DNA from: Alphaproteobacteria bacterium
GTDB taxonomy: Bacteria; Pseudomonadota; Alphaproteobacteria; RF32; CAG-239
Assembly: GCA_017960745.1 (NCBI GenBank)
Contig: JAGCYN010000049.1
Span: 1 to 32,540 of the forward strand
Reading direction: 5' to 3'
Length of the DNA stretch: 32,540 bases
In this document: positions 546-27,127 of the stretch, in pieces
How positions within the stretch are numbered: the first letter of the stretch is position 1
Layout of the letters: each line of letters opens with the position of its first letter
Program-made: the position numbers and the translations under genes
The notes under the pieces: generated by a model
Database searches by the model: none
What the model was told of the DNA's origin: nothing
Seen by the model: the letters and a program-made list of their open reading frames with translations, nothing else

Positions 546-1108
546 TGCTGTTGGAAACACTGAAAGAGTTTGATTGGTTTAATGAGCCGCAGCAAGTTCG
601 TTTTGAAGAAAACGGCATGCGGGTTGTGGCTAAATATCGAACTGATTTTTGGTGTTGTGCGCGGCATGATTTTCGCAAAGATGACGGTCATTTCTTCTTT
701 ACCTATGTTTTGGGCGATTTTTGTTGCGATTTGAATTGGAGTTTTGAACGAAACGAAACCTATGATCAATGCGGCATTATGGTGCGCAGTGATGTCAATA
801 ATTGGTTCAAAGCGTCGGTTTTATGTGAAAATGACAATCAACCGATGTTGGCAACTTGTCTGACAAACGACGGCTATTCGGATTTGGCAACGGTGCCGTT
901 GCCGATCGGGGTACAGCGCGTTTGGTATCGGCTGAAACGGCGGAAAGGGTGTTATATTGCCAGCTATTCTCTAGACGGTACGGATTTTATCCAGCTGCGC
1001 AAGTTCTATCTGATTCATGATATGGATGATATCAAAATCGGCGCCTACATCTGTTCGCCTCAACGTGATGATTTTGAAGCGGTGTTGCACGCTATTGATA
1101 TGTCTTAA
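545..1108 (+). CDS. DUF1349-like (concanavalin/glucanase-fold) protein
   Basis: W..NEP, TDFW, DDGHFFF, GDF and YDQCGIMVRSD..NWFK recall the DUF1349 family pattern, from memory. The ATG overlaps the upstream TAA by 1 nt (TAATG). Confidence 0.55.
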   Translation: MLLETLKEFDWFNEPQQVRFEENGMRVVAKYRTDFWCCARHDFRKDDGHFFFTYVLGDFCCDLNWSFERNETYDQCGIMVRSDVNNWFKASVLCENDNQPMLATCLTNDGYSDLATVPLPIGVQRVWYRLKRRKGCYIASYSLDGTDFIQLRKFYLIHDMDDIKIGAYICSPQRDDFEAVLHAIDMS

Positions 1109-1869
1109 GGCAACAGGGTTTCCGGTCTGAGAGTGGTAAATAAGGTATAATTTAGTGCAAACGTGCAGTTGTCATATTCGTTGCAACTGCAGGCCACGTG
1201 TGCCGCATCTTCGGAGAAAGGCGTCGGCATAAAGCCGTCTCCCGGTTTAGCAACATTGTTTTTATAATGCACGGCTGCATTGACGGTAATTTTTTCGCCG
1301 TCATTGTCGGTTATAGCCGCGGTTTGGATGGTGCTGAAATCGGCGTCAATGTCGTTCAGCGCCGTATCGGTGCCGTCCGAGGTAACCTGTCCGGCGGCAA
1401 CCGCAACCAATCCCTGTTCTTTGCCGCCCCAATTCAGGGTTGCCAAACTGACACACGATTCATGCGACAGTTTTTGATAAGAAATCTTAAATGTCGGCGA
1501 TATAATTTTACCGATTTTATCGGTTAGGGTTTTCGCCTGCTTAATCACAATCGGTCCGCCGAAAGGATTGGTGATGGTGTCACCTTTGAATAAGGTTTTC
1601 GGAATAGCGCCCACCTCGACCATTTTCTGAATTGAGGGAATCGGTTCATTACCGTGAACGGTGTAAAACACCCGAATATTCTCCGTTAATTGGGCAATTT
1701 GCACCACCGAAGACTGCAATCTTTTATTTTGTTGGTAAACATGGGCGGCAAAAGCTACAAAACGGCAAAAATAAAGAAAAAGAACAACACATAAAGTCCC
1801 CGCAACCCAAAGGAACATTTTCCAAATGCGGTACTTTCGTTCGTATTCTTCTTTTTCTTTACGGTTCAT
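1105..1869 (-). CDS. Membrane-anchored pilin-fold-like protein, paralog of the 13515-14117 product, without a canonical prepilin cleavage site
   Basis: It has a basic N-terminus and then one TM helix (MFLWVAGTLCVVLFLYF). With the 200-aa prepilin it shares AIPKT(L/F), FGG(P/T)(I/V).(I/V), F.I(S/K)(Y/F)..L....C..LA..(N/D)W and C-terminal Cys residues. It starts 5 nt downstream of the secA stop. Confidence 0.5.
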   Translation of the reverse strand: MNRKEKEEYERKYRIWKMFLWVAGTLCVVLFLYFCRFVAFAAHVYQQNKRLQSSVVQIAQLTENIRVFYTVHGNEPIPSIQKMVEVGAIPKTLFKGDTITNPFGGPIVIKQAKTLTDKIGKIISPTFKISYQKLSHESCVSLATLNWGGKEQGLVAVAAGQVTSDGTDTALNDIDADFSTIQTAAITDNDGEKITVNAAVHYKNNVAKPGDGFMPTPFSEDAAHVACSCNEYDNCTFALNYTLFTTLRPETLLP

Positions 1870-5642: not shown

Positions 5643-6644
5643 TTAACCGAACAATGTTTCTTTTAAGCGTTGTAAAGTCCGCTGTGCATACGGTCTGGCG
5701 CGGGCAGCACCATCTTCCAAAAAGCCGCGGACCTCATCATAATGCGCCATATAATAATCATAAACCGCCTTGGCATCTCTGGTTTGTTCCAAAATCACGT
5801 CAAGCAGCATGGCTTTGATATGACCGTAACCAAGTTTGCCGTTTTTGAGACCGTCGGCCATTTCGGCGGTTTGTTCCGGCGTTGCCAAACATTTATAAAT
5901 CTGATAAACAAACACGTCTTCCGGATTTTTCGGTTCTTCAATCGGTTTAGAATCGGTGATGGTGGCATAAACCGCCTTTTTAACAATTTTTTCATCCTCA
6001 AAAATCGGAATCACGTTGTTATATGATTTGCTCATTTTGCGCCCGTCCGTGCCCGGTAATACCGAAACATTATTTGCGGTAACGTATTCCGGCAATTTTA
6101 ATAAATCGCGGTCATAGTAAGCGTTGACGGCGCCGGCAATATCGCGGGCAATTTCAACGTGCTGAATCTGATCTTTGCCGACCGGTACAATATCTGTATC
6201 CATTGCCAAAATATCGGCAGCCATCAGCGTCGGATAAGTGTATAAGCCCATATTAACGCCGTCATCGGCCGGTTTGTTGTCAGCCAGATTCTTTTCCACA
6301 CAAGCCTTGTAGGCGTGGGATTTATTCATGAATCCTTTCGGCGTAAAAGCATACAGAATGGTCGTAATTTCGTTAATTTCCGGAATATCGGATTGACGAT
6401 AAAAATAATCCGTTTTCGGATTAAGACCGGCAGCCAGATAGATGCAGGCAATTTCTTTAATTTCACGTTGCAGAATCTCGGCATCTTTCATAAAATTGAT
6501 GGCGTGATAGTCGGCAATAAATAAATTAAAACGCGATGCCTGATGTCCCAGCTCAACAGCCGGTTTGATGGCGCCGAAATAATTGCCGATATGCGGCTTT
6601 CCGGTTGGTTTAACACCGGTTAAAATACATTTATTTTCAAACAT
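5643..6644 (-). CDS. trpS: Tryptophan--tRNA ligase
   Basis: GVKPTGKPHIGNYFG (HIGH-like) and KMSKSYNN (KMSKS). I place the start at the internal ATG (MFENKCILTG) because GAGGA lies 5 nt upstream. The 20-codon upstream extension in the ORF track has no RBS. Confidence 0.92.
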   Translation of the reverse strand: MFENKCILTGVKPTGKPHIGNYFGAIKPAVELGHQASRFNLFIADYHAINFMKDAEILQREIKEIACIYLAAGLNPKTDYFYRQSDIPEINEITTILYAFTPKGFMNKSHAYKACVEKNLADNKPADDGVNMGLYTYPTLMAADILAMDTDIVPVGKDQIQHVEIARDIAGAVNAYYDRDLLKLPEYVTANNVSVLPGTDGRKMSKSYNNVIPIFEDEKIVKKAVYATITDSKPIEEPKNPEDVFVYQIYKCLATPEQTAEMADGLKNGKLGYGHIKAMLLDVILEQTRDAKAVYDYYMAHYDEVRGFLEDGAARARPYAQRTLQRLKETLFG

Positions 6645-6723
6645 GATATCCTCGTTATAAATCTTCTTGCCGTTCAAGTTACACATATTGTGTGCAAAAA
6701 TCAATTAAAATCTAAAAATTGTG

Positions 6724-6751
6724 TTGTAATCTGACAGAATAAAAGTATAAT
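6724..6751 (+). promoter_or_regulatory. Candidate sigma70-type promoter for serS and the downstream genes
   Basis: TTGTAA, a 16-nt spacer, then TATAAT, about 37 nt upstream of the serS ATG. Confidence 0.4.
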
Positions 6752-6787
6752 TGCGAATGTTGAATTGTTAATTTATTGAGGCACATA

Positions 6788-8068
6788 ATGTTAGATATAA
6801 AATTTATTGCAGAGAATACCGAATGGGTAAAACAAAGCTTGGGAAAGAAAGATTTTCCGGCAGAAAAAGTTGATGAGTTATTGGCAACATATTATGAACT
6901 GAATAAGTTGAAAACCTCATCCCAATCCTTGGCAGAAGAAAAAAATAAGCTCAGTAATGCGATAAAGAGTGCTTCAAATGAAGAACGTCCGGCAATTATT
7001 GCTCAAAGTAAAGCAATCGGTGAAGAATTTAAAATCGAACAGGAAAAATTGGCTGAAATTCAGGCTAAATTTGACGATATGATGCTGAGAATGCCAAACT
7101 ATCCGAGCGAAGAAAGCCCGATCGGCCCGGATGACAGCGCCAATGTGGTCCGTCGCAAAGTCGGCGAGTTGCCGCATTTTGATTTTGAGCCGAAAGACCA
7201 TATCGAATTGATGGAAATCAACGATTGGAGCGAGATGGAGCGCATCGCCAAAGTTTCCGGTTCGCGAACCTATGCCATCAAGAATGATTTGGCACAGTTG
7301 GAAATTGCCATTCACATGATGGTGATGGATATTTTGCGTCAACACGGCTTTACGTTGATTACGGTGCCGGCGCTTTCCAAAGAAAAACCGCTTTATAACC
7401 AAGGTTATTTGCCGTTTGCGCGCGATGAAATTTATTATATGCCGACAGATGATATTTATCTTTCCGGCACGGCAGAGCTGATTTTGAATTCGTTGCGTGC
7501 CGATGAAATGTTGACGGAGGCTGATTTGCCGGTATTATATGCCGGATTTTCGCCGTGTTTCCGCCGCGAGGCCGGTGCTGCCGGAAAAGATACCCGTGGT
7601 TTGGTTCGTGTACACCAATTCTTCAAAACCGAACAGTTTGTCATTTGCAAAAATGATATGGCGGAAAGCGAAAAATGGCACCAAACGTTATTGCAAATTT
7701 CGGAAGAAGTTTTGCAGGCATTGGAATTGCCGTATCAGGTTTTGGAAGTTTGTACCGGTGATATGGGCGCGCCGAAGTATCGTCAATATGACTTGGAAGC
7801 TTGGGTACCGTCGCAGAATTGCTATCGCGAAACCCATTCCTGCTCCAACATTACGGACTGGCAGGCTCGTCGTACCAACTTGCGCTATCGCGGCAATGAC
7901 GGCAAAGTTAAGTTTTGCCACACCTTGAACAATACCGGTATTGCCACGCCGCGCGCTTTAGTGCCGTTCATTGAGAACCATCAGCAAAAAGACGGTACGG
8001 TCCGTATTCCGGAAAAATTGCAGCCGTATTTGGGCGGAAAGAAATTTATCGGTAAAAATGCAAAATAA
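6788..8068 (+). CDS. serS: Serine--tRNA ligase
   Basis: MLDIKFI N-terminus, a coiled-coil tRNA-binding arm, and class II motifs (FSPCFRREAGAAGKDTRGLVRVHQF; TGDMGAPKYRQYDLEAW; NNTGIATPRALV). GAGG lies upstream of the ATG at 6788. Confidence 0.95.
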   Translation: MLDIKFIAENTEWVKQSLGKKDFPAEKVDELLATYYELNKLKTSSQSLAEEKNKLSNAIKSASNEERPAIIAQSKAIGEEFKIEQEKLAEIQAKFDDMMLRMPNYPSEESPIGPDDSANVVRRKVGELPHFDFEPKDHIELMEINDWSEMERIAKVSGSRTYAIKNDLAQLEIAIHMMVMDILRQHGFTLITVPALSKEKPLYNQGYLPFARDEIYYMPTDDIYLSGTAELILNSLRADEMLTEADLPVLYAGFSPCFRREAGAAGKDTRGLVRVHQFFKTEQFVICKNDMAESEKWHQTLLQISEEVLQALELPYQVLEVCTGDMGAPKYRQYDLEAWVPSQNCYRETHSCSNITDWQARRTNLRYRGNDGKVKFCHTLNNTGIATPRALVPFIENHQQKDGTVRIPEKLQPYLGGKKFIGKNAK

Positions 8069-8702: not shown

Positions 8703-9980
8703 ATGAAATTGCAGATGAAATCAGTAGAAAAATGGATAGGCAGATTGCTGATTTGCTTTTTCATCGGCACGGTTATATGGCTTAATATCAACCGTTTGCA
8801 ATACAATTTATACGCCAATTATGAAAAAGTTGTCGAATACGGTCGCGTTCGCGAAGTCAAAGAGCGGATCGAGCCGATGATGGCCGCTGTTTTTTATGAA
8901 GATAAATCGGAACAAAAAAAGCATTTGGCGGCCTATCTGAGCCACACGGACAACTATCGGCATCATCAGGTGCGGATGGTGGCGGTGCCGCGTCGGCTTA
9001 ATCAGGGCAGTGAGGCTGTTATTAAAAATCTGTACGGCGAAATTAAAAAATATAATCAAATTGAAAGCATCAGTCTGGTTTATACGGAAGGTGACGATTG
9101 GCACAAACACAAGGATTTGTTGCAAAATAAGATGCATCCGGCGGATATAGAATTGTTATATTTGGCCGAAGATGACATCAATGCCGAACAAATTATCGAA
9201 AATGAGTTGCAAAAACCGCGTCATCTGGTGATTTTTTTGGCGGCGTTAAATCAGGGTTTACAGGGAAATAATCGCGATTTTCTGCTGGAAGAGGCGGTTT
9301 ATTTTGCACAGCGTCATTCATATCGTATGAATGTGTTTGATGTGATCGATACGCAGTTGGCAAAGGCTGTCGAAAAAGATTATGCCTCGATTTTTGCCTT
9401 ATCGCCGGGCGCGAGTAAAAGCAAGTTGGCCAAGCAAAAAGATAATTTGGAAGCTTTTGCCGCAAACTATAAAGACGAATTGCTGGAATATTTTTTGTTG
9501 AATTTGCACGAAAAAGATACCGCCACGATTTGGCCGCGGAAAACACCGAGTACTTTCCGCTTGTTTGATCGCGGCGATGTTTATGTGAAGCTGACGGACG
9601 AAAATAATGTTGAATTGTTCAATTACGGTCGTTTCGGGCGCAATAAAAGCGTTATTGTAACCATCATCGAAATTGCCCGTAAGGTGTCCAGACGTATAAA
9701 TTTACGAAATGTAAAACATATTCAATTATATTTGCTGACAGAATTAGAGCCGGTTAAATATATCGGTGCGGTAAAGCTGGAAGATTTGCTGGATAACGAT
9801 GACGGTGTTTTGGCGCGCTATGAAAATTTCTATACCATCATGCTGCCGTCGGATCGACCTGATGCGTCCCAGAGCTTGCTCGATGTGTTGCGGCAAAAAG
9901 TCGGTGTACCGGTCAATGCGGAAAGCAAGGATATGAAATTTTATAAATTCAAAACGGCGGAGATTGAATATGAAAATTAA
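8703..9980 (+). CDS. Hypothetical membrane-anchored protein (425 aa)
   Basis: One N-terminal TM helix (WIGRLLICFFIGTVIWL). I recognise no family motif. It sits 18 nt after the HD gene, and the next gene overlaps its end. Confidence 0.6.
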   Translation: MKLQMKSVEKWIGRLLICFFIGTVIWLNINRLQYNLYANYEKVVEYGRVREVKERIEPMMAAVFYEDKSEQKKHLAAYLSHTDNYRHHQVRMVAVPRRLNQGSEAVIKNLYGEIKKYNQIESISLVYTEGDDWHKHKDLLQNKMHPADIELLYLAEDDINAEQIIENELQKPRHLVIFLAALNQGLQGNNRDFLLEEAVYFAQRHSYRMNVFDVIDTQLAKAVEKDYASIFALSPGASKSKLAKQKDNLEAFAANYKDELLEYFLLNLHEKDTATIWPRKTPSTFRLFDRGDVYVKLTDENNVELFNYGRFGRNKSVIVTIIEIARKVSRRINLRNVKHIQLYLLTELEPVKYIGAVKLEDLLDNDDGVLARYENFYTIMLPSDRPDASQSLLDVLRQKVGVPVNAESKDMKFYKFKTAEIEYEN

Positions 9981-11685
9981 CGGTTATACGCTGAACTATT
10001 CGGCAGCTGAATTTAAGAAAAAAGTCAGCAAGGAAATGCGTCAGGTTGTGTTGATTGATGAGAAATGTGAGGAGTATAAAAAACTTTCCGACGGCGATAA
10101 AAAAGCATTGCATTACTTAATCAATGCCGCGCGCATTATGAATGATGTGGCGCTTGAAATGGATCATCCGATGAATTTGGTGCAAAAACAGGCGTTGGAG
10201 GTGGCGGCGGAGAAAAGTCCTTATGCCGCCAATGCCTTGAAATTGTTTAATTCGCTGAACGGTGTTGCTGGTTCAAACGGTATTGATAAAGAACCGGTGG
10301 AAATTTTCAAGGAAATCCACATGTTTGAAGGGCGGAATTTTTATCCGACCGATTTGAGCAGTGCGGAATTGCAAAAGATTATCGCACAAATGCTGGATGT
10401 CGGCAAAACAGCCGAAGTGAAGACAATTTTAAGTGCGCGCACAATGGTTCGTCGCGATGGAGAATTTTTAAAAGCTATTGATTATACAGAATATTTTGCC
10501 GATGAATTTTCTGAAATTGCCAATGAATTGGAGTGTGCCGCCCACTTTACCACCGACGAATTGTTTAAGGATTATCTCGGCTGGCAGGCACAGGCGCTGT
10601 TACAGAATAACGAAGAAATGGATATTTTGGCCGATAAACATTGGGCTAAAATGCAGGATACCCCGTTGGAATTCACCATCAGCAGAGAAAACTATGATGA
10701 TAAATTAACACCGACCATCTTTTCCAATCAGGAACTGTGCCGCCGCTTGGAACAGGCACATATTCATCCGGTACCGAAAGATATGCTCGGGGTGCGTGTC
10801 GGTATTGTTAATCAAAAAGGCACGGAACTCTTACTGCAATTTAAAGATGAGATGATAAAACTGGCTGATTTGATGCCGCTTTGTGACCAATATACGCAGA
10901 ACGTCGGCGGCAAAAAAGGCCTGAAACAGACCATGGTGGATGTTGATGTGGCGGCGCTGACCGGTGATTATGCTTTGTGTCGCGGCGGCATTACAACAGC
11001 ACAGAATTTGCCGAATAACGATAAGCCGGCGTTGGCGCACGGCGGCGGTCGGCGCAATGTTTATCATCGTCAGGTCAGAATGAGCGGCGATAAGAAAAAA
11101 ACAGCGCAGATTTTGGATAAGTTGGTTTCACCGGCGTTGCATAAATATTACAGCACCGAGGCACGTCATCTATTTGTTATCGGGCACGAAAACGGCCATT
11201 CTTTGGGGCCGGACAGCAGTTATCAGACGTCTATCGGCATTTATCAGCATATCATTGAAGAACACAAGGCCAATATTATTTCTGCCGCGATGATGCCGGA
11301 ATATATAAAAGCCGGTATTATCACCGCAGAGCAATTAAAGGAAATTTATACCACTTGGATTATCAGAGATTTATTTGTATTGGCTTATCCGGCAGACCAT
11401 GAGGCGCATCGCGTGGCCGATGTGATGGAATTTAACTATCTGCACGCACATGGCGCTTTTTCGTTCAATGCGGAGAAAAAACTGGAAATTGATTTCAAAA
11501 AATTACCGCAGGTAGTGCGTGCTTTATTGGAGGATATTATCAAAGTTCAGTTGTCAAAATCGCCTGATTATGCTAAACAATATATCGACAAGTGGTCGGC
11601 ATGGACAGAGATGCAACAATATATTGCCGAATATAAGAGAAGTTTGGGCGTGAAGCCGTATATTGATATTGTTATGAATTTCTAA
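9970..11685 (+). CDS. Zinc metallopeptidase-like protein, M49 (DPP III)-like HExxH subtype
   Basis: VIGHENGHSLGP (HExxH) is followed about 25 aa later by IIEEHKANIISA, resembling the second M49 zinc motif EE(C/A)(R/K)A(E/D). No signal peptide. GGAG lies 7 nt upstream of the ATG at 9970. Confidence 0.6.
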   Translation: MKINGYTLNYSAAEFKKKVSKEMRQVVLIDEKCEEYKKLSDGDKKALHYLINAARIMNDVALEMDHPMNLVQKQALEVAAEKSPYAANALKLFNSLNGVAGSNGIDKEPVEIFKEIHMFEGRNFYPTDLSSAELQKIIAQMLDVGKTAEVKTILSARTMVRRDGEFLKAIDYTEYFADEFSEIANELECAAHFTTDELFKDYLGWQAQALLQNNEEMDILADKHWAKMQDTPLEFTISRENYDDKLTPTIFSNQELCRRLEQAHIHPVPKDMLGVRVGIVNQKGTELLLQFKDEMIKLADLMPLCDQYTQNVGGKKGLKQTMVDVDVAALTGDYALCRGGITTAQNLPNNDKPALAHGGGRRNVYHRQVRMSGDKKKTAQILDKLVSPALHKYYSTEARHLFVIGHENGHSLGPDSSYQTSIGIYQHIIEEHKANIISAAMMPEYIKAGIITAEQLKEIYTTWIIRDLFVLAYPADHEAHRVADVMEFNYLHAHGAFSFNAEKKLEIDFKKLPQVVRALLEDIIKVQLSKSPDYAKQYIDKWSAWTEMQQYIAEYKRSLGVKPYIDIVMNF

Positions 11686-11694
11686 GGGGTGGAA

Positions 11695-12084
11695 ATGCTG
11701 AAAAAATTGGCATCGGGAGAGTGCTCATTAAAAGTAACGTTTTGGGTTTTCGGTGTTTTCGGTTTTGCCGTTCTGGCACTGATTACCAATATTACGCACA
11801 GCAGTTTATTGCGTGTTATTTGTGGTCATGCGCGTTGTAACAGAAGCGTTATTTTATATTTCTTTTCAAACTTCATTTCGATTATGACCAGTCATAACGC
11901 GGCTTTTCGTTGGTTTTTGGTTATTCACTCGTTTATGGGGGCGCTTTTCGGGGCGTATATGTTAATGGTACTGCGCGGTTTATGGAAATCGGCGGAAAAA
12001 TATGAAGGCAGCTCTTTTTGGGCTGTAAGCGCTAAATTTTTGTTGGTCGTGATGGCCTTGTTTTGTTTGAAATCTATTATATAA
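11695..12084 (+). CDS. Small polytopic membrane protein (129 aa), unknown function
   Basis: Three to four hydrophobic segments (VTFWVFGVFGFAVLALI, VILYFFSNFISIM, FLVIHSFMGALFGAYMLMV, FLLVVMALFCL). AAGGGG RBS lies 5 nt upstream of the ATG at 11695. Confidence 0.6.
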   Translation: MLKKLASGECSLKVTFWVFGVFGFAVLALITNITHSSLLRVICGHARCNRSVILYFFSNFISIMTSHNAAFRWFLVIHSFMGALFGAYMLMVLRGLWKSAEKYEGSSFWAVSAKFLLVVMALFCLKSII

Positions 12085-13496: not shown

Positions 13497-13514
13497 GAGG
13501 GGTAGGAGTTGGAA

Positions 13515-14117
13515 ATGAGAATGAATAACAGAAGTGCTCAAAGCGGTCGTTCCATGGTCGAAATGATGGGCTATATGGCCGTCGTTATGACAGTTATTGC
13601 GGCGGTCGGCCATTTAATCGGCAATGCTTATAATGAATTTAAATACAGCAAGGCTTCTATGCAAGTTTCGGATTTGGCCGCGGCAATTGTGCGTTCGGCA
13701 ACCGTTGATGCCGATTACAGCGAAGTTGTCGGCAATGTCCGAGCCGTTAATGACAATGGTAAAGCGATTATTCCAAAGACATTCCGCATTGTGGGCACAA
13801 CGGTGTATCATGCATTCGGCGGTACGGTTGAAGTAGCGGCTATGACCGGCGATGCTTCCAAGTTTGCAATAAAATTCAACAGACTGAACCGTAAACAATG
13901 TATCGAACTGGCTATGAAAGATTGGCAGCGTAATCAAACGGTGGATTTATACGAGATTGCCGTTAACAATAACTATTGGTTCTGGTCCGCCTATAAAAAT
14001 CTTGAAACGACGGATAACACATTACCGGTCAAACGTAGCGCTGTTGCCGGTACGGGAGCGGGGAACAGCGGACAATGTAATGCCAGCAATAACAGTATTA
14101 TGTGGGTATTTAATTAA
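13515..14117 (+). CDS. Type IV pilin-like protein with a prepilin-type N-terminus
   Basis: MRMNNRSAQSG|RSMVEMMGYMAVVMTVIAAV has Gly at -1, Glu at +5 and a hydrophobic alpha1 helix. Two Cys lie in the C-terminal half. TAGGAG RBS lies 6 nt upstream. Confidence 0.75.
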   Translation: MRMNNRSAQSGRSMVEMMGYMAVVMTVIAAVGHLIGNAYNEFKYSKASMQVSDLAAAIVRSATVDADYSEVVGNVRAVNDNGKAIIPKTFRIVGTTVYHAFGGTVEVAAMTGDASKFAIKFNRLNRKQCIELAMKDWQRNQTVDLYEIAVNNNYWFWSAYKNLETTDNTLPVKRSAVAGTGAGNSGQCNASNNSIMWVFN

Positions 14118-19793: not shown

Positions 19794-20432
19794 TTATGAA
19801 GTTTTTTTATCTTTGCAATGGCAATATTCGGAAATCGGGCATTTGTCACAGAGAGGTTTTTGTGCCTTGCAAACATAGCGTCCGAACAACACCAGCCAGT
19901 GATTGGTATTTTTGACTAATTCCGGCGGTAGAACAGCCATTAAATCTTTTTCCACTTCCAACGGGGTTTTGCTGCGGCTGAAGTCCAAGCGATGGGCAAT
20001 CCGCATTACATGGGTGTCAACCGCCAGCGTCGGTTGATTATGCCAAACATTCATCACCACATTGGCGGTTTTGCGACCGACGCCGGCCAGCGTGGTCAGC
20101 ACATCGCGGTCGGCCGGCACTTCGCCGTTATAATCGTCAACCAATTGTCGGCTGAGCGCCATAATATTTTTGGCCTTGTTGTTAAACAAACCGATGGTTT
20201 TGATGTAACCTTTTAATTTTTCTTCGCCCAAACTCAGCATTTTTTGCGGTGTATCGGCAACTTGAAACAGCTTTTCGGTTGCTTTATTGACGCCTTTATC
20301 GGTACTTTGCGCTGAGAGAACGACCGCCACCAACAAAGTATAGGGATTATGGAAATTCAGCTCGCATTGCGGATTGGGATTTTCTTGTTGGAAAATCCGC
20401 ATAATTTCGAGGATTTCAGCTTTTTTACGCAT
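19794..20432 (-). CDS. nth: Endonuclease III (DNA glycosylase/AP lyase)
   Basis: HhH-GPD motif LAGVGRKTANVV, VDTHV, and the 4Fe-4S ligands CKAQKPLCDKCPISEYC (C-x6-C-x2-C-x5-C). Confidence 0.95.
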   Translation of the reverse strand: MRKKAEILEIMRIFQQENPNPQCELNFHNPYTLLVAVVLSAQSTDKGVNKATEKLFQVADTPQKMLSLGEEKLKGYIKTIGLFNNKAKNIMALSRQLVDDYNGEVPADRDVLTTLAGVGRKTANVVMNVWHNQPTLAVDTHVMRIAHRLDFSRSKTPLEVEKDLMAVLPPELVKNTNHWLVLFGRYVCKAQKPLCDKCPISEYCHCKDKKTS

Positions 20433-21508
20433 CAGGCTTTTACCCCGCCGGCGCCCGGTGCTTTCGGCGCAGTTTCATCCAGAGGCCAACGCGGACGCGG
20501 CTTGAAGTCTAAATCATTGGTATAGCCGAGGCGAAAACGTTCCAAGCCGGCCCAAGCTACCATTACCCCGTTATCGGTGCAAAAACGAATCGGCGGTGCG
20601 GCAAAATCCAAATCATGTTTGGCGGCCAATTCTTTTAAGTGATTGCGTAAATAAGTGTTGGAGGCTACGCCGCCGGACACCACCAAATCTTGTCCGTCAG
20701 GATATTTTTGCTTGAAATATTTAATGGCGCGTTCCAGTTTGCGCACCAAACAGTCGGTTGCCGTCATCTGAAAGCAGGCGCAAATATCGGCTACATCCTG
20801 CTTCGGTAAAATGGCGTGTTCGACAATGCCGTCAGCGGTGTAAGATTCAATAATTTTACGGACGGCGGTTTTTAAGCCGGAAAATGAAAGATTACAATCG
20901 CCGGAACCGATAAGCGGTCGCGGCAAAGCAAAACGCGAATCGTCACCGATGGCGGCCATTTTTTCAATCATCGGGCCGCCGGGATACCCGAGTCCGAGCA
21001 TTTTTGCCACTTTATCAAAAGCTTCGCCGGCTGCGTCATCGATGGTGGTGCCGAGGCGTTCGTATTCACCGACATTTTTAACCACCAGAATCTGGCAATG
21101 TCCGCCGGAAACTAAAAGTAACAAATACGGAAATTGTACATCGTTGGAAATGCGGGCACACAGAGCGTGGGCTTCCAGATGATTGACAGCCACAAACGGT
21201 TTATTAAGAGCCAAAGATAAAGCTTTGGCGGTCATCACGCCGACCACCACGCCGCCGATTAAACCCGGACCGGCCGAGGCGGCTACGGCATCAAGCTCAT
21301 TTAAGCTGATGTGGGCGCGTTGCAGACAAATGGATATAATGTCGTCAACGTGTTCCAAATGCGCGCGAGCGGCAATTTCCGGCACCACACCGCCGTATTG
21401 TTTGTGTTCTTCCTGTGATTGCAGCGCTTCGCCCAAAATTTCTTTTTTATCGGTTACAATGGCGGCGCCGGTATCATCACAGCTGCTCTCTATACCTAAA
21501 ATTATCAT
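20432..21508 (-). CDS. tsaD: tRNA N6-adenosine threonylcarbamoyltransferase TsaD
   Basis: ILGIESSCDDTGAAIV, GVVPEIAARAHLE, NHLEAHAL, SGGHCQ and VSGGVASN. I place the start at the ATG at 21508; a TTG at 21520 is the alternative. The stop shares 1 nt with the nth start. Confidence 0.93.
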   Translation of the reverse strand: MIILGIESSCDDTGAAIVTDKKEILGEALQSQEEHKQYGGVVPEIAARAHLEHVDDIISICLQRAHISLNELDAVAASAGPGLIGGVVVGVMTAKALSLALNKPFVAVNHLEAHALCARISNDVQFPYLLLLVSGGHCQILVVKNVGEYERLGTTIDDAAGEAFDKVAKMLGLGYPGGPMIEKMAAIGDDSRFALPRPLIGSGDCNLSFSGLKTAVRKIIESYTADGIVEHAILPKQDVADICACFQMTATDCLVRKLERAIKYFKQKYPDGQDLVVSGGVASNTYLRNHLKELAAKHDLDFAAPPIRFCTDNGVMVAWAGLERFRLGYTNDLDFKPRPRWPLDETAPKAPGAGGVKA

Positions 21509-21603
21509 TTGCGTTTCCAAAAGATTTTCTTTATCTTTAAAGTATTTCGTATTATAAATATATGGCGTAAGTCAGCATCAAATGTCAAGAAAAAGGATGA
21601 AAC

Positions 21604-22647
21604 ATGACCAAAAATAATCAGAGTACGGCCTTGAATCAGGCAGAAAACAAAGCAATACCAAGCAATAACAAGGTGGAAGCCCCGAAGAAAAAAAGCAAAT
21701 GGAAACTAAAATTATTTTTGCTGATTGTGATAGCGCTTATCGGCGGCGGTGCGTGGTTAGGATTGCAACTGCAACAACAGTTGCAAAATGTCGATACCGG
21801 CAACAATGACGCGATGACACAGTTGCAAGCCGTATATGAGGCAAAGTTTAAGGAACTTGATGCGCGGGTTAATGATTTGAATTTGGAGGTTTCCCGCCTG
21901 AAAAACAGTGAGCGGGAAGTTGTGGCGTCGACCGATGATCATCACGAAGAATATGAACAACAGTTGGCGGCGCTTGAACACCGTATGGACGAACGTTTTG
22001 CGTCTTTGCAGGCTTCGGCACCGGAGCCGGTGGTGGTTTCAACGGCGGATAAAGAAGTGCGGATGAAGCAAGAAATATTATTGGCGGCCGGATTGATGAC
22101 CGTTCGTGATTTGGCCGAACGGGGACTGCCGTTTGCTTACGAGGCCGAAGTGTTGCAAATTATGGCACAGGGCAATCCGCAAGCGATGAAATATATTGAT
22201 GTGATGCAAAAATATGCCGTATCCGGTATTAAAGGTAAAAAAATGCTGATTAAAGAGTTTAACCATATATATCCGCATTTGTCGGCTCAGGAACAGCCGG
22301 CGCCGGAACAAGCCGCCGTTGCGGAAAGCGAAACGCAGGAAGAATGGTGGAATAAGTTTCCGAAGATGGCACTGCAATGGTTAAGAAATTTGTTCGCCAG
22401 CAAAAAGACAGTTGAAACACCGGTTTTGGATCAGAAAGAAGATGTGGTTTATGAACTGGTGAACGACGGCGATTTGGCGGCGGCACTCAACGAATTGAGT
22501 ACCAATGTGATTTATGCACAACTGATGAACGGTGTTTTATATCAATGGACCGTTCAGGTTCGCGGTTATTTGGAATTTGAAAACGCTGCCAGCGGTTTGT
22601 TGATGAACGCTTTGGCAAATTTGCATTTGAAAGAAATGGAGCACTAA
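21604..22647 (+). CDS. Mic60/mitofilin-like (HemX-like) membrane protein: N-terminal TM helix, coiled coil, conserved C-terminal domain
   Basis: TM helix LFLLIVIALIGGGAWLGL, then a Q/E/L-rich coiled coil. The C-terminal VNDGDLAAALNELS....YQWTVQVRGYLEFENAASGLLMNAL fits the alphaproteobacterial Mic60 C-terminal pattern (..GDL..A..EL......W...A..R......L..L), from memory. Divergent from tsaD. Confidence 0.55.
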   Translation: MTKNNQSTALNQAENKAIPSNNKVEAPKKKSKWKLKLFLLIVIALIGGGAWLGLQLQQQLQNVDTGNNDAMTQLQAVYEAKFKELDARVNDLNLEVSRLKNSEREVVASTDDHHEEYEQQLAALEHRMDERFASLQASAPEPVVVSTADKEVRMKQEILLAAGLMTVRDLAERGLPFAYEAEVLQIMAQGNPQAMKYIDVMQKYAVSGIKGKKMLIKEFNHIYPHLSAQEQPAPEQAAVAESETQEEWWNKFPKMALQWLRNLFASKKTVETPVLDQKEDVVYELVNDGDLAAALNELSTNVIYAQLMNGVLYQWTVQVRGYLEFENAASGLLMNALANLHLKEMEH

Positions 22648-22653
22648 AGAATT

Positions 22654-24039
22654 ATGGCGGATATTGAAGCAATTTGGCAGCGGCTTTATGAATGCGCGCC
22701 GCTGCAGTTGGAAAAAATTGCCGAAGTCAAAACGGCGGCAACAGCGTTTAATACCAATATTGATGCGGTTTTACGCATTAAAGGCGATAAGATAGCCGCG
22801 TTGGCACAGCAAGTCGGTCTGACGGAAGCAGATTTGCAAAGCAATGATACCGGCTTGGAAAATGAGCGCGACGTGGTGCGCGGGATTATCAAGTGTTTTG
22901 GCAACGGCATTGCCGAAGAGTGGATTGCCGATAAAAAATCGGTCTATGAATGGATGCGCGATAATTTAGGTTATACGCGTCTGCAAATGGGCGGTCAGGG
23001 CGGTATTGTGGCCAATATTTTAGCGGTTACCGGGGTTCGGAAGGTGGTGGCGCATACCAATTCGCATCCGCAGTTGCAGGCTGACCAATTCTTAAAGCTT
23101 GAGAATTTGTTGGGTTTTGATGAAAACGGGACTTTGGCGCCGGCATGTTCAATTAACCGCCAAAACGATGTGCCGCTGATCCATTGGATTATTGAATTTG
23201 CCAAGGGTGACAGTTTCGAATATTTGGGCAAACAATATGTTTGTCCGAAGGCCAATCGCTTTATTGCCACTTATGATCCGGCCAATATGATGCTTAAAAC
23301 CGATGAAAACTTTGTCCGCTATTTGCAGCAAAACGGGTTTGATTATTTGATTTTGTCCGGTTATCACAGCCTGACTTCATTGCATAACGGCGTTAATTTG
23401 GTGCGCGAATCGGCCGAAAATATCAAAATGTGGAAAGCGGCTTGCCCGCGCGGCATTGTTCATCTGGAATTGGCTTCAACGCAAGATAAAATGGTTCGCA
23501 AAGCGATTTTGGAAAAGATTGCGCCGTTGGCGGATTCCATCGGCCTGAATGACAGAGAAGCGCTGGATGCTTTGGAAATTATCAATCCGCAAATGTATGA
23601 ACGTTGCAGTAATGAGCCGCTGACGGCTGCTCAAATGTTTGATATTCTTTATTGTTTGGCGACCGCCTTGAATGTTCAGCGAATTCAGCTGCATATGTTC
23701 GGTTTATACATAACGTTGCAAAAGTTGCGCGGGGTTTTGAGTGCCGAACAAAATCTGCACGGGATGATTTTGGCTGCTGAAATTGCCGCCACCAAGGCCA
23801 TGTCGGGCAAAGTTGACAACTACAATATGTTGCTGGCGGCCAGCGGCGAAAAAATAGAAGTTTCCGTGTTGCAGAATTTAGCGGCACACGTCGGCGGTGA
23901 AGTTTTATTGCAGACCGGTATTTGTCAATATAAGGGTTATGAAGTTATTGCCGTGCCGACGATAATTGTCGAAAAACCGGTTACATTGGTCGGTATGGGC
24001 GATACAATATCTTCGCTGTCGTTGGTCGGTGCCCGATAA
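22654..24039 (+). CDS. ADP-dependent sugar kinase family protein (ADP-glucokinase/phosphofructokinase type, ribokinase superfamily)
   Basis: Motifs are collinear with archaeal ADP-GK/PFK, recalled from Pyrococcus enzymes: AFNTNIDAV, RLQMGGQGGIVANILA, ANRFIATYDPAN, LSGYHSL, VHLELAS, SIGLNDREAL, IQLHMFGLY, AATKAMSG, and the terminal LVGMGDTISSLSLVG (GxGD catalytic Asp). Confidence 0.8.
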   Translation: MADIEAIWQRLYECAPLQLEKIAEVKTAATAFNTNIDAVLRIKGDKIAALAQQVGLTEADLQSNDTGLENERDVVRGIIKCFGNGIAEEWIADKKSVYEWMRDNLGYTRLQMGGQGGIVANILAVTGVRKVVAHTNSHPQLQADQFLKLENLLGFDENGTLAPACSINRQNDVPLIHWIIEFAKGDSFEYLGKQYVCPKANRFIATYDPANMMLKTDENFVRYLQQNGFDYLILSGYHSLTSLHNGVNLVRESAENIKMWKAACPRGIVHLELASTQDKMVRKAILEKIAPLADSIGLNDREALDALEIINPQMYERCSNEPLTAAQMFDILYCLATALNVQRIQLHMFGLYITLQKLRGVLSAEQNLHGMILAAEIAATKAMSGKVDNYNMLLAASGEKIEVSVLQNLAAHVGGEVLLQTGICQYKGYEVIAVPTIIVEKPVTLVGMGDTISSLSLVGAR

Positions 24040-24068
24040 ATTGCGGCAATGCCGCGCAAGAAAAGCGC

Positions 24069-24097
24069 TTGACAGCTTATGTGAATCACAATATAAC
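24069..24097 (+). promoter_or_regulatory. Candidate promoter for valS
   Basis: Consensus TTGACA, a 17-nt spacer, then TATAAC, 30 nt upstream of the valS ATG. A short gcggc-aat-gccgc hairpin precedes it. Confidence 0.5.
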
Positions 24098-24126
24098 GAG
24101 AAAAAATCAATTGGAGAAAGTTAAAA

Positions 24127-26739
24127 ATGTCTTATAAGAGCACTAAAAGTCTGGATAATCGTATGGATTTGCCGGAAATTGAAAACCGCTGCAAATCTTT
24201 TTGGGCGGAAAATAATACTTATCGCTATGACAATAGCAGAAGCAGAGAAGAAACATTCGTGATTGATACACCGCCGCCGACGGTATCGGGCTCGTTGCAT
24301 ATCGGTCATATTTTCAGCTACACGCAAACAGATGTGATTGCGCGCTATCAGCGTATGAGCGGAAAAACAGTTTTTTATCCGATTGGTTGGGATGATAACG
24401 GTTTGCCGACGGAACGTCGCGTTCAAAACTATTACAACATTACCTGTAATCCGAGTTTGCCGTATGACCCGAATTTTAAGCCGGAACATAACGAGCAGGA
24501 CAAATCGCCGCGCAAAGAAGTTTCTCGTAAGAATTTCATAGAAGCTTGTGAAACGCTGACATCTTCCGATGAAATTGTTTTTGAAAACGTGTTCAAAAAC
24601 ATCGGTCATTCGTATGACTGGAATATCAAATATACCACCATCGGCGCCGGCAGTATTAAAGTTTCACAGGAATCGTTTATTGATTTGTATGAAAAAGGTG
24701 AATTGCATTTAATGGAATCACCGACGATGTGGGATGTTACATTCCAATCCGCCATTGCGCAGGCTGAAGTTGAAGATAAGGAAATTCAAGGCTTTTTCCA
24801 TGATATTAAATTCCCGATTGAAGGGACCGACGACTATGTGGTTATTGCCACCACCCGTCCGGAATTTTTACCGGCTTGTATTTCAATCGTGGCGCATCCG
24901 GATGATGAAAGATATAAAAAATATTTCGGCAAAAAAGTGCTGGTTCCGTTGTTTGATACGCCGGTTGAAATTGTGGCTTCCGACCACGCCGAAATGGATA
25001 AGGGTACCGGTATCATGATGGTTTGTACGTTCGGTGATGCGGCCGATGTGGCTTGGTGGAAGCAAACCGGTTTGCCGTTAAAGCAAATTATCGGTTTGGA
25101 CGGCTGCCTGCTGGATGTTGAGTTCGGTAAGGGGGCGTTTGTTTCCAACAATCCGGAAAGAGCCAACGGTTTTTATAAGCAACTGGCCGGTTTGAGCACC
25201 AAACAGGCTCGCGAGAAAATTGTTCAGTTGTTGCGTGAAAACAACTATTTGGCATGCGAGCCGCGGCCGTTGACACATACCGTTAAATTTTACGAAAAAG
25301 GCAATTTGCCGCTGGAATTTGTGACTTCAAGACAATGGTTTATTACGCTTCAAGATAAAAAAGACGCGATGGTGGCAATGGGTCGGAAAATTAAATGGAA
25401 ACCTGAACACATGCAGTATCGCTATGAAGAATGGGTGAGGGGCTTAAACCAGGATTGGTGCATTTCAAGACAACGTTTCTTCGGCGTTCCGTTCCCGGTT
25501 TGGTACAAACTCGATGACAAGGGCAATGCTGACTACGAACATCCGATGCTTGCCGACAGAAGCCAACTGCCGGTTGATCCGATGATAGATTGCCCGAAAG
25601 GCTACACGGAAGCCCAGCGCGGTCAGCCGAACGGCTTTATCGGCGATAAGGATATTATGGATACATGGGCAACATCGTCCTTAACACCGCAAATTGCGCT
25701 TGAAGCGGCTGAGAGCGACAAACTCGGTTTGCCGTTTGATATTCGTCCGCAAGCACATGATATTATTCGTACATGGGCGTTTTATACCATTGCTAAAGCC
25801 ATGATGCATGAAAACACCATCCCGTGGAAAGAAATTTTAATCAGCGGCTGTATTTTGGATCCGGACCGCAAGAAGATGTCCAAATCTAAAGGTAATGTGG
25901 TTACGCCGCAGCATTTGATTGACACTTACGGCGCCGATTCCATTCGTTATTGGGCATCACGCGCGCGCTTGGGCGTTGATACGGCGTTTGAAGAGCAGAT
26001 TATGGCTCAGGGCAAAAAGCTGGTTAATAAGATTTTCAACGCCAGCAAGTTTGTGTTTACCATTGTGGAAAACAGCAAGCTGAACGGTGTTTCCGATTAC
26101 AGAAAATTTATTACGGAGCCGCTGGATAAAGCATGGCAAAGCAAGATTTATGCCATGGTTAAGCAGGCAACGGAATCTTTTTCAACACATGATTACGCCA
26201 CGGCTTTGGATGTGATTGAAAAACGTTTCTGGGACTTTTGCGATAATTATCTGGAAATTGTGAAGAAACGCGCTTATGCGCCGGAAGATTGCTCGGCCGT
26301 TGCCTCGCTGATGGAAACGATTGATACGTTTTTACGCGTGTTTGCGCCGTTCTGTCCGTTCATTACCGAAGAAGTTTATCAGGCTCGTCCGTGGGCGGCT
26401 GCAACGGATAAAGTATCGCTTCATAATGTGATGTGGCCGCAGAGCAGTGAATATGCGGATATAGCTAATGCCGACGGTGCTTTGTATGACGCCGTTTCGG
26501 CGATTACGGCAGAAATCAGAAAGGCTAAGACAGCGGCCAATGTTTCGCAAAGAACACAAGTTCAGAAAGCCGTGATTGCGGCACCTGATGCTTCACTTAA
26601 CCTGATTAAAGAGGGTTTGGTTGATATTCGGAACGTTTGCGGCTTGCAGGAAAATGCTTTGAGCTTTGTTTCGGCAGCAGAATTGGCGGTTAATGATATT
26701 GAATTGGATTTAACCGAATTACCGCAGAAAGCTTCCTAA
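24127..26739 (+). CDS. valS: Valine--tRNA ligase, short archaeal/actinobacterial-like type
   Basis: PPPTVSGSLHIGHIFSYTQTDVIARYQRMSGKTVFYPIGWDDNGLPTERRVQ (HIGH region), KMSKSKGN, and the CP1 editing region. At 870 aa it has no long C-terminal coiled coil. Confidence 0.93.
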   Translation: MSYKSTKSLDNRMDLPEIENRCKSFWAENNTYRYDNSRSREETFVIDTPPPTVSGSLHIGHIFSYTQTDVIARYQRMSGKTVFYPIGWDDNGLPTERRVQNYYNITCNPSLPYDPNFKPEHNEQDKSPRKEVSRKNFIEACETLTSSDEIVFENVFKNIGHSYDWNIKYTTIGAGSIKVSQESFIDLYEKGELHLMESPTMWDVTFQSAIAQAEVEDKEIQGFFHDIKFPIEGTDDYVVIATTRPEFLPACISIVAHPDDERYKKYFGKKVLVPLFDTPVEIVASDHAEMDKGTGIMMVCTFGDAADVAWWKQTGLPLKQIIGLDGCLLDVEFGKGAFVSNNPERANGFYKQLAGLSTKQAREKIVQLLRENNYLACEPRPLTHTVKFYEKGNLPLEFVTSRQWFITLQDKKDAMVAMGRKIKWKPEHMQYRYEEWVRGLNQDWCISRQRFFGVPFPVWYKLDDKGNADYEHPMLADRSQLPVDPMIDCPKGYTEAQRGQPNGFIGDKDIMDTWATSSLTPQIALEAAESDKLGLPFDIRPQAHDIIRTWAFYTIAKAMMHENTIPWKEILISGCILDPDRKKMSKSKGNVVTPQHLIDTYGADSIRYWASRARLGVDTAFEEQIMAQGKKLVNKIFNASKFVFTIVENSKLNGVSDYRKFITEPLDKAWQSKIYAMVKQATESFSTHDYATALDVIEKRFWDFCDNYLEIVKKRAYAPEDCSAVASLMETIDTFLRVFAPFCPFITEEVYQARPWAAATDKVSLHNVMWPQSSEYADIANADGALYDAVSAITAEIRKAKTAANVSQRTQVQKAVIAAPDASLNLIKEGLVDIRNVCGLQENALSFVSAAELAVNDIELDLTELPQKAS

Positions 26740-26755
26740 AACTTTCTTGAGATGT

Positions 26756-26787
26756 AAAAAAAAGACCGCCGAAGCGGTCTTTTTTTT
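26756..26787. terminator. Bidirectional rho-independent terminator
   Basis: A8, then gaccgc-cgaa-gcggtc, then T8, between valS (+) and the convergent His-rich protein gene (-). Confidence 0.85.
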
Positions 26788-27127
26788 AACGATGATGGTG
26801 TCCGCCGTGGTGTCCGCCATGATGATGGTGTCCGAACAGGGCACCGCCGATAACGGCACCGGTAAAGCCGGCGAATAAAGTTGTTGCTACCGGATCATAG
26901 TAGTAACTGCGGGCAACCGGACGCGGACGCACGACAACCACCTGTTGAGCCGGTTGTTGAACCACAACCTGTTGCGGCTGCTGAGTATATACCCGCTGCG
27001 CGCTGGACGGCTCGGTATAAATTTCTTGTTTAACGTTGTTGTATTCATCTACCACCACAATGCGATCAGCCATGGCCGCGTTGCAGCAAATCGACGAAAT
27101 AACCAATAAGCAAATTAATTTTTTCAT
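26786..27127 (-). CDS. Small secreted protein with a Q/V-rich repeat, a glycine-zipper segment and a His-rich C-terminal tail
   Basis: Signal peptide MKKLICLLVISSICCNAAMA|D. QQPQQVVVQQPAQQVVVV repeat. FAGFTGAVIGGALFG glycine zipper. The C-terminus is HHHHGGHHGGHHHR. GGAGGA RBS. Confidence 0.7.
   Translation of the reverse strand: MKKLICLLVISSICCNAAMADRIVVVDEYNNVKQEIYTEPSSAQRVYTQQPQQVVVQQPAQQVVVVRPRPVARSYYYDPVATTLFAGFTGAVIGGALFGHHHHGGHHGGHHHR

Follow-up and report, generated by a model that had tools for sequence, protein, structure and literature searches.

A predicted ADP-dependent kinase gene among housekeeping genes

The window analysed here, a whole stretch of 32,540 nucleotides (contig JAGCYN010000049.1), derives from an alphaproteobacterium of the RF32/CAG-239 lineage and encodes the C-terminal part of DnaJ, SecA, a SurA-like peptidyl-prolyl isomerase, TrpRS, SerRS, DksA, Maf, RNase G, MlaE/F/D, Nth, TsaD, Mpl and LdcA, in keeping with the bacterial housekeeping neighbourhood recognized by the original prediction, an earlier reading of the same DNA. 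Amid these genes, an ATG-started open reading frame (ORF; Table 1) specifies a 461-aa kinase of the family of ADP-dependent phosphofructokinases (PFK) and glucokinases (GK). The protein is probably a mesophilic bacterial ADP-dependent glucokinase of the EC 2.7.1.147 type, its donor (ADP) and acceptor (glucose) being predicted from the residues of the active site. It is preceded on the same strand by a gene for a putative membrane protein and followed by one for a valyl-tRNA synthetase (ValRS); scans of the window for tRNA genes and Rfam families were empty.

Table 1. Coordinates of the kinase gene, its predicted functional sites and neighbouring features in the window
Feature	Coordinates	Strand	Basis
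Kinase coding sequence, predicted glucose-specific ADP-glucokinase	22654..24039	+	ORF, PF04587, AlphaFold2 model and Foldseek
N33-x-N35-x-D37 (NXNXD), sugar-binding motif	22750..22764	+	Aligns with N32/N34/D36 of AncMsPFK; invariant in 81 relatives
Glu89, predicted glucose-binding Glu	22918..22920	+	Aligns with AncMsPFK E90; role per PMC7948494; invariant
G113-G114-Q115, sugar-contact loop	22990..22998	+	Aligns with G114/G115/Q116
L175-I-H177, specificity positions, GK state	23176..23184	+	Alignment; Cys/His in P. horikoshii ADP-GK 1l2l
R202 (ADP beta-phosphate Arg, family-wide) to D208 (at PFK/bifunctional Arg212)	23257..23277	+	Alignment
H270-L-E272 (HXE), Mg-ADP motif	23461..23469	+	Motif and alignment
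N299-D-R-E302 (N/DXXE), Mg-ADP motif, Asn as in GKs	23548..23559	+	Motif and alignment
G447-M-G449-D450 (GXGD), predicted catalytic base Asp450	23992..24003	+	Motif, alignment and conservation
Upstream partner gene, 347 aa, predicted N-terminal membrane helix and long helices	21604..22647	+	Conserved
nth and tsaD, divergent, left border of the syntenic block	19794..21520	-	Beside the kinase gene in nearly all of L003-L082, 63-90% identity
Alternative-type ValRS, downstream neighbour outside the conserved unit	24127..26739	+	NCBIfam NF000540 alt_ValS, 1105 bits (cut-off 900)
Small protein, 113 aa, probably secreted	26786..27127	-	
PilS N-terminal (type IVb pilin-like) match	1105..1869	-	Weak Pfam match, E 9e-8
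PilS N-terminal (type IVb pilin-like) match	13509..14117	+	Weak Pfam match, E 2.4e-6
ORF of 427 aa	8703..9980		No Pfam family
ORF of 571 aa	9964..11685		No Pfam family
ORF of 129 aa	11689..12084		No Pfam family

That this bacterial genome encodes a genuine member of the ADP_PFK_GK family is confirmed: in the alignment described below, both the catalytic Asp and the NXNXD motif are intact, and none of the outcomes that the original prediction had named as refuting it was observed. All five motifs named in the original prediction occupy the expected places in the expected order (NTNIDA at residues 33-38, MGGQGGIVAN at 112-121, HLELA at 270-274, GLNDRE at 297-302 and GMGDTISS at 447-454), and the Pfam profile PF04587 matches the product with an E-value of 6.9e-71 (239.6 bits, cut-off 27) over its full length, spanning profile positions 3-429 of 430. 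At E<=0.01, PF04587 was the sole Pfam family recovered, and PfkB was not matched. A sequence search against the Protein Data Bank (PDB) yielded 14 distinct sequences, all of them ADP-dependent kinases, with E-values from 1.8e-54 to 7e-14.

The predicted structure agrees with this classification. An AlphaFold2 model based on an alignment of 18 homologues (mean predicted local distance difference test score, pLDDT, 91.5; predicted template modelling score, pTM, 0.89) has a two-domain fold, composed of a large Rossmann-like alpha/beta/alpha domain and a small beta-sheet lid. When the model was compared with the PDB by Foldseek (template modelling scores, TM, given as query/target), archaeal ADP-glucokinases matched it with TM of 0.82-0.89 overall, including the enzymes of Pyrococcus horikoshii (5o0j, 0.88/0.89, root-mean-square deviation 2.5 Å) and P. 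furiosus (1ua4, 0.86/0.87), and the ancestral Methanosarcinales ADP-PFK (AncMsPFK) with bound fructose 6-phosphate (F6P; 6xio) did so at 0.85/0.85. The ATP-dependent kinases of the PfkB/ribokinase type share with the protein the superfamily core and the catalytic Asp of GXGD but lack its larger ADP-family architecture, and adenosine kinase, ribokinase and similar folds reached a TM of at most 0.42 (E >= 8.5e-9).

The sugar site and the predicted substrate

The positions that separate glucokinases from phosphofructokinases in this family are known from the study of Muñoz et al. (PMC7948494), in which the structure of AncMsPFK was solved with bound F6P and complemented with an alanine scan. K179, N181 and R212 were found to be conserved in specific PFKs and bifunctional enzymes only, and E90 in GKs and bifunctional enzymes only, whereas the GK of Thermococcus litoralis has a His at the position of N181 (PMC7948494). 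We transferred these positions to the kinase through an alignment of 130 sequences, comprising family representatives, close relatives of the kinase, AncMsPFK and the P. horikoshii GK; all 24 AncMsPFK residues named in that study fall on the expected letter (24/24). The kinase agrees with the P. horikoshii GK (1l2l) at all discriminating positions (Table 2), including the K179 site, where both proteins have a residue other than Lys (Leu and Cys, respectively).

Table 2. Residues at positions that discriminate glucokinases from phosphofructokinases or bind sugar and metal
AncMsPFK position	AncMsPFK	Kinase	P. horikoshii GK
90 (glucose binding; GK and bifunctional enzymes only)	E	E89	E
179 (F6P phosphate; PFK and bifunctional enzymes only)	K	L175	C
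181 (F6P phosphate; His in GKs)	N	H177	H
212 (PFK and bifunctional enzymes only)	R	D208	D
244 (F6P phosphate/glucose)	Q	H238	H
284 (Mg)	T	A274	A
310 (DXXE Mg motif)	D	N299	N

All glucose contacts listed for GK and bifunctional structures (D36, E90, G114, G115, Q116, the His at 181 and D471 in AncMsPFK numbering) are kept in the kinase, as are the family-wide catalytic and Mg-ADP residues (N33, N35, D37, G113, G114, Q115, R202, H270, E272, E302, H347, G447 and D450) and the Mg-ADP ligands of 6xio (R206, which corresponds to R202; the intact HXE and N/DXXE motifs; and H360, which corresponds to H347). The same site is maintained by the relatives. All 82 kinase ORFs taken from related loci are intact and 461-489 aa long, apart from one of 580 aa that represents a start-codon artefact, and the 81 that were aligned share 45-99.8% pairwise identity (median 56%), with 74 invariant positions in the alphaproteobacterial copies. 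L175 is Leu in 78 and Met in three of these orthologues, H238 is His in 79 and Ser in two, and G449 is replaced by Ala in a single sequence; the remaining listed site residues are invariant. Being the glucokinase set, the sugar-site residues favour the entry step to glycolysis that the original prediction had suggested.

Several observations weigh against the assignment as a glucokinase. The top PDB sequence match is AncMsPFK (6c8z/6xio, 1.8e-54), which is not a GK; the kinase fails the NCBIfam equivalogs for archaeal ADP-GK, scoring 200.3 bits against a cut-off of 387 for NF010642 and 182.6 against 554 for NF010641; in comparisons over aligned and trimmed columns, its clade shares only 26-31% identity with archaeal representatives and characterised enzymes; and our literature searches returned no enzyme-assay paper for any member of the bacterial clade. 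Moreover, in the alphaproteobacterial loci the kinase gene has no sugar-metabolism neighbours (here and below, locus comparisons rest on the best 80 of 461 matching loci, L003-L082, unless other loci are named), and the inositol-type operon around a sister subfamily, described below, indicates that PF04587 appears not to be limited to glycolytic substrates. In view of the residues at the sugar site, we ascribe the better overall similarity to AncMsPFK to the scaffold, and the scores far under the archaeal equivalog cut-offs place the kinase in a separate clade instead of among the orthologues of those archaeal groups. The most fitting description is that of a distinct bacterial ADP-GK clade that carries the GK signature but fails the archaeal GK and PFK equivalogs.

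Among the alternatives, the one that survives best, although we consider it unlikely, is an ADP-dependent kinase acting on another hexose or hexose derivative (mannose, glucosamine, 1,5-anhydroglucitol or a sugar acid) or on a nucleoside. An identity of about 28% to characterised GKs and the uninformative alphaproteobacterial surroundings leave room for such a substrate; new substrates do seem to occur in the family, as the sister class in an inositol-catabolism-like operon indicates, and promiscuous phosphorylation of 1,5-anhydroglucitol by ADP-GKs is on record (PMC12965863). On the other hand, the glucose-contact residues are fully conserved, which disfavours the different sugar or nucleoside that the original prediction had allowed for, whereas the class with a suspected other substrate has altered exactly these residues (HVD, Gln and GGT in place of NXNXD, Glu and GGQ); against nucleoside kinases of the same superfamily, the model reaches a TM of only about 0.4. 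Gene context in other members of the bacterial clade likewise supports a role in glucose or glucose 6-phosphate (G6P) metabolism. In a Myxococcota-type contig, the kinase gene starts 4 nt after a gene for a GH31 glycosidase (Pfam E 1.5e-113), the best NCBIfam match of which is the alpha-glucosidase MalA, and P0128, a member of the same bacterial clade, is encoded on a 98-kb contig with phosphoglucomutase and glucose-6-phosphate isomerase genes within about 3 kb; the neighbours of three further members (P0123, P0124 and P0129) are uninformative.

Much less probable is an ADP-PFK, or a bifunctional PFK/GK like the enzymes of Methanosarcinales and Methanococcales, serving the third glycolytic step (EC 2.7.1.146). 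AncMsPFK is indeed the top match of the kinase by PDB sequence and, as 6c8z/6xio, by Foldseek E-value, and the NCBIfam ADP-PFK model TIGR02045 is matched at 187.8 bits. That score, however, falls far under the cut-off of 408.1, and the TM-scores to GKs are equal or higher. Fold and catalytic motifs are common to AncMsPFK, which has promiscuous GK activity, and the kinase, but the latter is devoid of Lys179, Asn181 and Arg212, with Leu, His and Asp at these positions, invariant or nearly so across the clade, and has Asn for Asp in DXXE. Alanine at each of the three positions raises the KM for F6P 200-1000 fold (PMC7948494). Because the basic ligands of the F6P phosphate are missing, no PFK activity is expected, and PFK or bifunctional activity was rejected on these residue states; in a neighbour-joining (NJ) tree, too, the clade of the kinase lies among GK-type sequences, well away from the cluster of K-x-N (PFK or bifunctional) sequences.

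Similarly improbable is the use of ATP (or PPi or GDP) as the donor in vivo, in which case the protein would be a conventional glucokinase with an uncommon fold. To our knowledge, all characterised PF04587 enzymes employ nucleoside diphosphates as the main donor, which counts against this possibility. Although some archaeal family members take other nucleotides to a limited extent (PMC12965863), the Mg-ADP-binding residues of 6xio are conserved in the kinase and the ATP-dependent PfkB folds match the model poorly.

As an ADP-dependent glucokinase, the kinase would be a two-domain ribokinase-superfamily enzyme catalysing the reaction ADP + D-glucose -> AMP + G6P. Glucose would be held in the interdomain cleft by Asn33/Asn35/Asp37, Glu89, Gly113-Gly114-Gln115 and His177, and Mg-ADP by His270-x-Glu272, Asn299-x-x-Glu302, Arg202 and His347; Asp450 of the GXGD motif, acting as the catalytic base, would take the proton from O6, which would then attack the beta-phosphate to yield G6P and AMP. 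The G6P formed in this way could feed glycolysis or other G6P-consuming pathways, with ADP spent in place of ATP. Priming of sugars by ADP is usually rationalized as useful at a low ATP/ADP ratio, and such an advantage is plausible in gut anaerobes. A more ambitious proposal, which we regard as doubtful, is that the kinase is the sole glucose-phosphorylating enzyme of an order-level group of gut Alphaproteobacteria, providing a mesophilic entry into a 'modified Embden-Meyerhof' pathway, and that its conserved translational coupling to a HemX/Mic60-like inner-membrane protein is functional, for instance in membrane-proximal sugar capture, rather than a matter of gene-order inertia. Metabolic reconstructions of uncultured gut Alphaproteobacteria that seek only Glk, ROK or PTS (phosphotransferase system) components could miss glucose phosphorylation by this clade, the members of which, as mesophilic ADP-GKs that are easy to express, may also suit enzymology and experiments on whether ADP use helps at low energy charge.

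A bacterial clade and its history

Archaea and metazoans are the organisms to which ADP-dependent glucokinase is usually assigned. In a 2025 review of glycolysis, ADP-GK is tabulated under Archaea only (PMC12965863), and the bacterial occurrence of ADP-dependent kinases has been mentioned in passing (PMC7948494); our literature searches for an alphaproteobacterial, RF32, CAG-239 or Scatocola ADP-glucokinase, and for metabolic reconstructions, returned no study specific to the clade. PF04587 is a small family: in a set of 1.84 billion proteins clustered at 50%, it has 642 representatives. The group of the kinase accounts for about 10 full-length representatives, at 40-53% identity, including proteins from Myxococcota (MBP7125981.1) and Opitutales (MGF1451899.1), and beyond it identity drops to 33% or less. 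A word-index protein search with the kinase gave more than 1000 matches, the best 120 of which are 461-467 aa long and 52-67% identical, one being a 446-aa partial sequence, and relatives bear the NCBI name 'ADP-dependent glucokinase/phosphofructokinase'. When each GTDB species, represented by one genome, was scanned with two clade-specific peptides, 461 encoding loci were found, and the best 80 come nearly all from metagenome-assembled genomes (MAGs) of Alphaproteobacteria from human gut, rumen, horse, rabbit and chicken, among them Candidatus Scatocola faecigallinarum, the genus of which is placed in Rhodospirillales by NCBI.

The remark in the original prediction that the family is uncommon in Bacteria was therefore overstated, given these species-genome loci, the members in Myxococcota and Opitutales, a second bacterial clade and the NCBI annotation. 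The finding is real and correctly classified, yet less exceptional than first held, being solid and fairly ordinary; the family, its mechanism and its motifs were already known, the databases name the protein, and no concept is changed. What is new is a well-defined bacterial clade with a full glucokinase site, the gene for which belongs to the core of hundreds of alphaproteobacterial species from gut and rumen. The finding is of value in that it corrects the archaeal and metazoan view of ADP-GK and can make metabolic models of uncultured gut Alphaproteobacteria more accurate.

Four of the best 80 loci (L006, L007, L012 and L014) carry titles of Bacteroidaceae, Eubacteriales or [Ruminococcus] gnavus. 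They contain the same nth-tsaD-kinase block, with kinases 58-61% identical to the query, and the upstream membrane-protein gene was detected in three of the four; because the same syntenic block is carried, we consider them, most likely, mislabelled or mis-binned MAGs.

In the NJ tree, a group of 19 bacterial sequences, every one with the GK motif, was monophyletic in 200 of 200 bootstrap replicates. Its named neighbours are Asgard archaea (Heimdall-, Prometh- and Odin-archaeota), which share the GK motif and are among the nearest non-bacterial relatives at 26-30% identity, but the bacterial and Heimdall clades were joined in only 4 of 200 replicates. The Thermococcales ADP-GKs (P. horikoshii 1l2l/5o0j, P. 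furiosus 1ua4 and T. litoralis 1gc5/4b8s) have the same fold as the kinase and the same residues at NXNXD, Glu, GGQ, x-His, Arg...Asp, HXE, NXXE and GXGD; the kinase differs from them in being about 28% identical, below the equivalog cut-offs, from a mesophilic bacterial host and in a separate clade. Mammalian ADPGK (mouse 5ccf/5ck7) belongs to the same family, shares the predicted reaction and is likewise mesophilic, but is the most distant solved relative of the kinase (7e-14, TM 0.64-0.65). Eukaryotic ADPGK has been grouped with Asgard archaea (PMC11976288). A specific kinship between the kinase and eukaryotic ADPGK was rejected, the mouse enzyme (5ccf, TM 0.64) being the weakest match among the solved members.

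Taken together, the distribution and the synteny described below identify the kinase gene as an old core gene, passed on vertically, in a large group of Alphaproteobacteria from gut and rumen. The horizontal acquisition suggested by the original prediction stands only as an ancient event: native composition and a synteny kept at 51-61% protein identity mean that any inter-domain transfer is ancient. That the gene came recently from an archaeon, or that it lies on a contaminating or wrongly binned piece of DNA without an established function in the host, has next to no probability and was rejected, for even though the family is best known from Archaea and its nearest named non-bacterial relatives are Asgard archaea, the GC content (0.468), GC content at third codon positions (0.517) and codon-usage distance (0.053) of the gene are typical of the genes in the window, two data sets gave the same contig in independent assemblies, the order nth-tsaD-membrane protein-kinase is kept in about 80 species genomes, all 82 copies are intact, and the bacterial clade is monophyletic. 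In a bolder version of the more ambitious proposal above, the bacterial GK clade, which spans several phyla, and the Asgard proteins near it would preserve the trace of an inter-domain transfer that bears on how eukaryotic ADPGK arose; the kinase resembles mouse ADPGK only very weakly, which speaks against it.

A third, likewise bacterial class of PF04587 proteins occurs in Bacillota and Dictyoglomota. It is exemplified by protein P0178, encoded at positions 6001-7347 of both L092 and L093, with further representatives in P0146, P0166, P0167, P0170, P0177, P0179, P0183, P0192, P0201, P0222, P0223, P0244 and P0254. Its sugar site has H-V/T-D for NXNXD, Gln for the glucose-binding Glu, GGT for GGQ and Asn at the R212 position, and its catalytic motifs are kept (GDIISS in P0146). 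In L092 and L093, the gene lies in a LacI-regulated operon with IolE/IolI-like, IolB/KduI, IolG-like and IolJ-like (DeoC/Cgl0159) genes, in the place usually taken by the PfkB kinase IolC. This class may represent an ADP-dependent 5-dehydro-2-deoxygluconate-type kinase and a non-glycolytic function for PF04587; its identification as a eukaryotic-type ADPGK was rejected.

The conserved gene neighbourhood

Nearly all of the loci compared share the gene order in which nth and tsaD point away from the membrane-protein gene and the kinase gene that follows it, with kinases 51-61% identical to the query. In the window, the membrane-protein gene ends at 22647 and the kinase gene starts at 22654, so that the 6-nt gap noted in the original prediction holds, and a GGAG lies 12 nt 5' of the kinase ATG. 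Promoter and terminator scans of positions 21400-24300 gave sites no commoner than in shuffled sequences, with no terminator-like site between the two genes. Given the common strand and the short gap, the two are likely co-transcribed. In 77 of 82 loci, a same-strand gene ends -2 to 83 nt from the kinase start, and the upstream gene of the window had a recognizable homologue in 53 of the 80 related loci. The gene preceding the kinase encodes either a 320-400-aa homologue of this partner or, in some loci, an additional tetratricopeptide repeat (TPR) protein lying in between, namely a 475-486-aa HemY-like membrane protein with TPR and a LapB-type zinc ribbon (L024 4517-5977, L026 4517-5977, L062 and L076).

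The partner protein belongs to no Pfam family. Mitofilin (PF09731) was matched at E<=1 neither by the copy in the window nor by four orthologues in Pfam searches, a profile of the family retrieved coiled-coil noise only from the PDB, and a single-sequence AlphaFold2 model was unusable (pLDDT 44). A weak match to HemX was obtained (PRK10920, E 0.0046), and both the tsaD gene beside the partner and the HemY-like TPR protein of some loci are compatible with a HemX identity. The 'Mic60-like' label, which stems from the architecture and the position by tsaD, is a guess that these tests neither support nor exclude. The place of the gene by tsaD resembles the alphaproteobacterial hemCD-mic60-orf19 region, and tsaD, the partner and the HemY-like gene look like a remnant of an alphaproteobacterial hemC-hemD-hemX(mic60)-hemY region without the haem genes. 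The partner has a conserved C-terminal end (...LANLHLKEMEH).

Downstream of the kinase, the non-canonical ValRS reported by the original prediction passes the alt_ValS model, but its adjacency is confined to the sub-lineage of the window: it adjoins the kinase gene only in the two contigs of the window itself (L001 and L002) and in L090, a 67%-identical relative. In L017-L019 and L027, the kinase gene is directly followed by orf113, orf117, M50B, LdcA (where present) and Mpl, which in the window lie past the ValRS gene. Because the kinase is followed by orf113 without ValRS in these relatives, we consider ValRS a lineage-specific insertion (or a gene lost from this site in other lineages) and not a functional partner. 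In L090, gene calling split the ValRS into two (412 and 414 aa), pointing to a frameshift or to an error in assembly.

The small protein encoded past ValRS has Q/V-rich repeats and a His/Gly-rich C-terminal tail (HHHHGGHHGGHHHR), and is conserved beside orf117 and M50B in several relatives. Elsewhere in the window, two ORFs gave weak matches to the PilS N-terminal domain (Table 1), and a trio of consecutive same-strand ORFs (8703-12084), situated between these two and after an HD-domain gene, recurs in L091.

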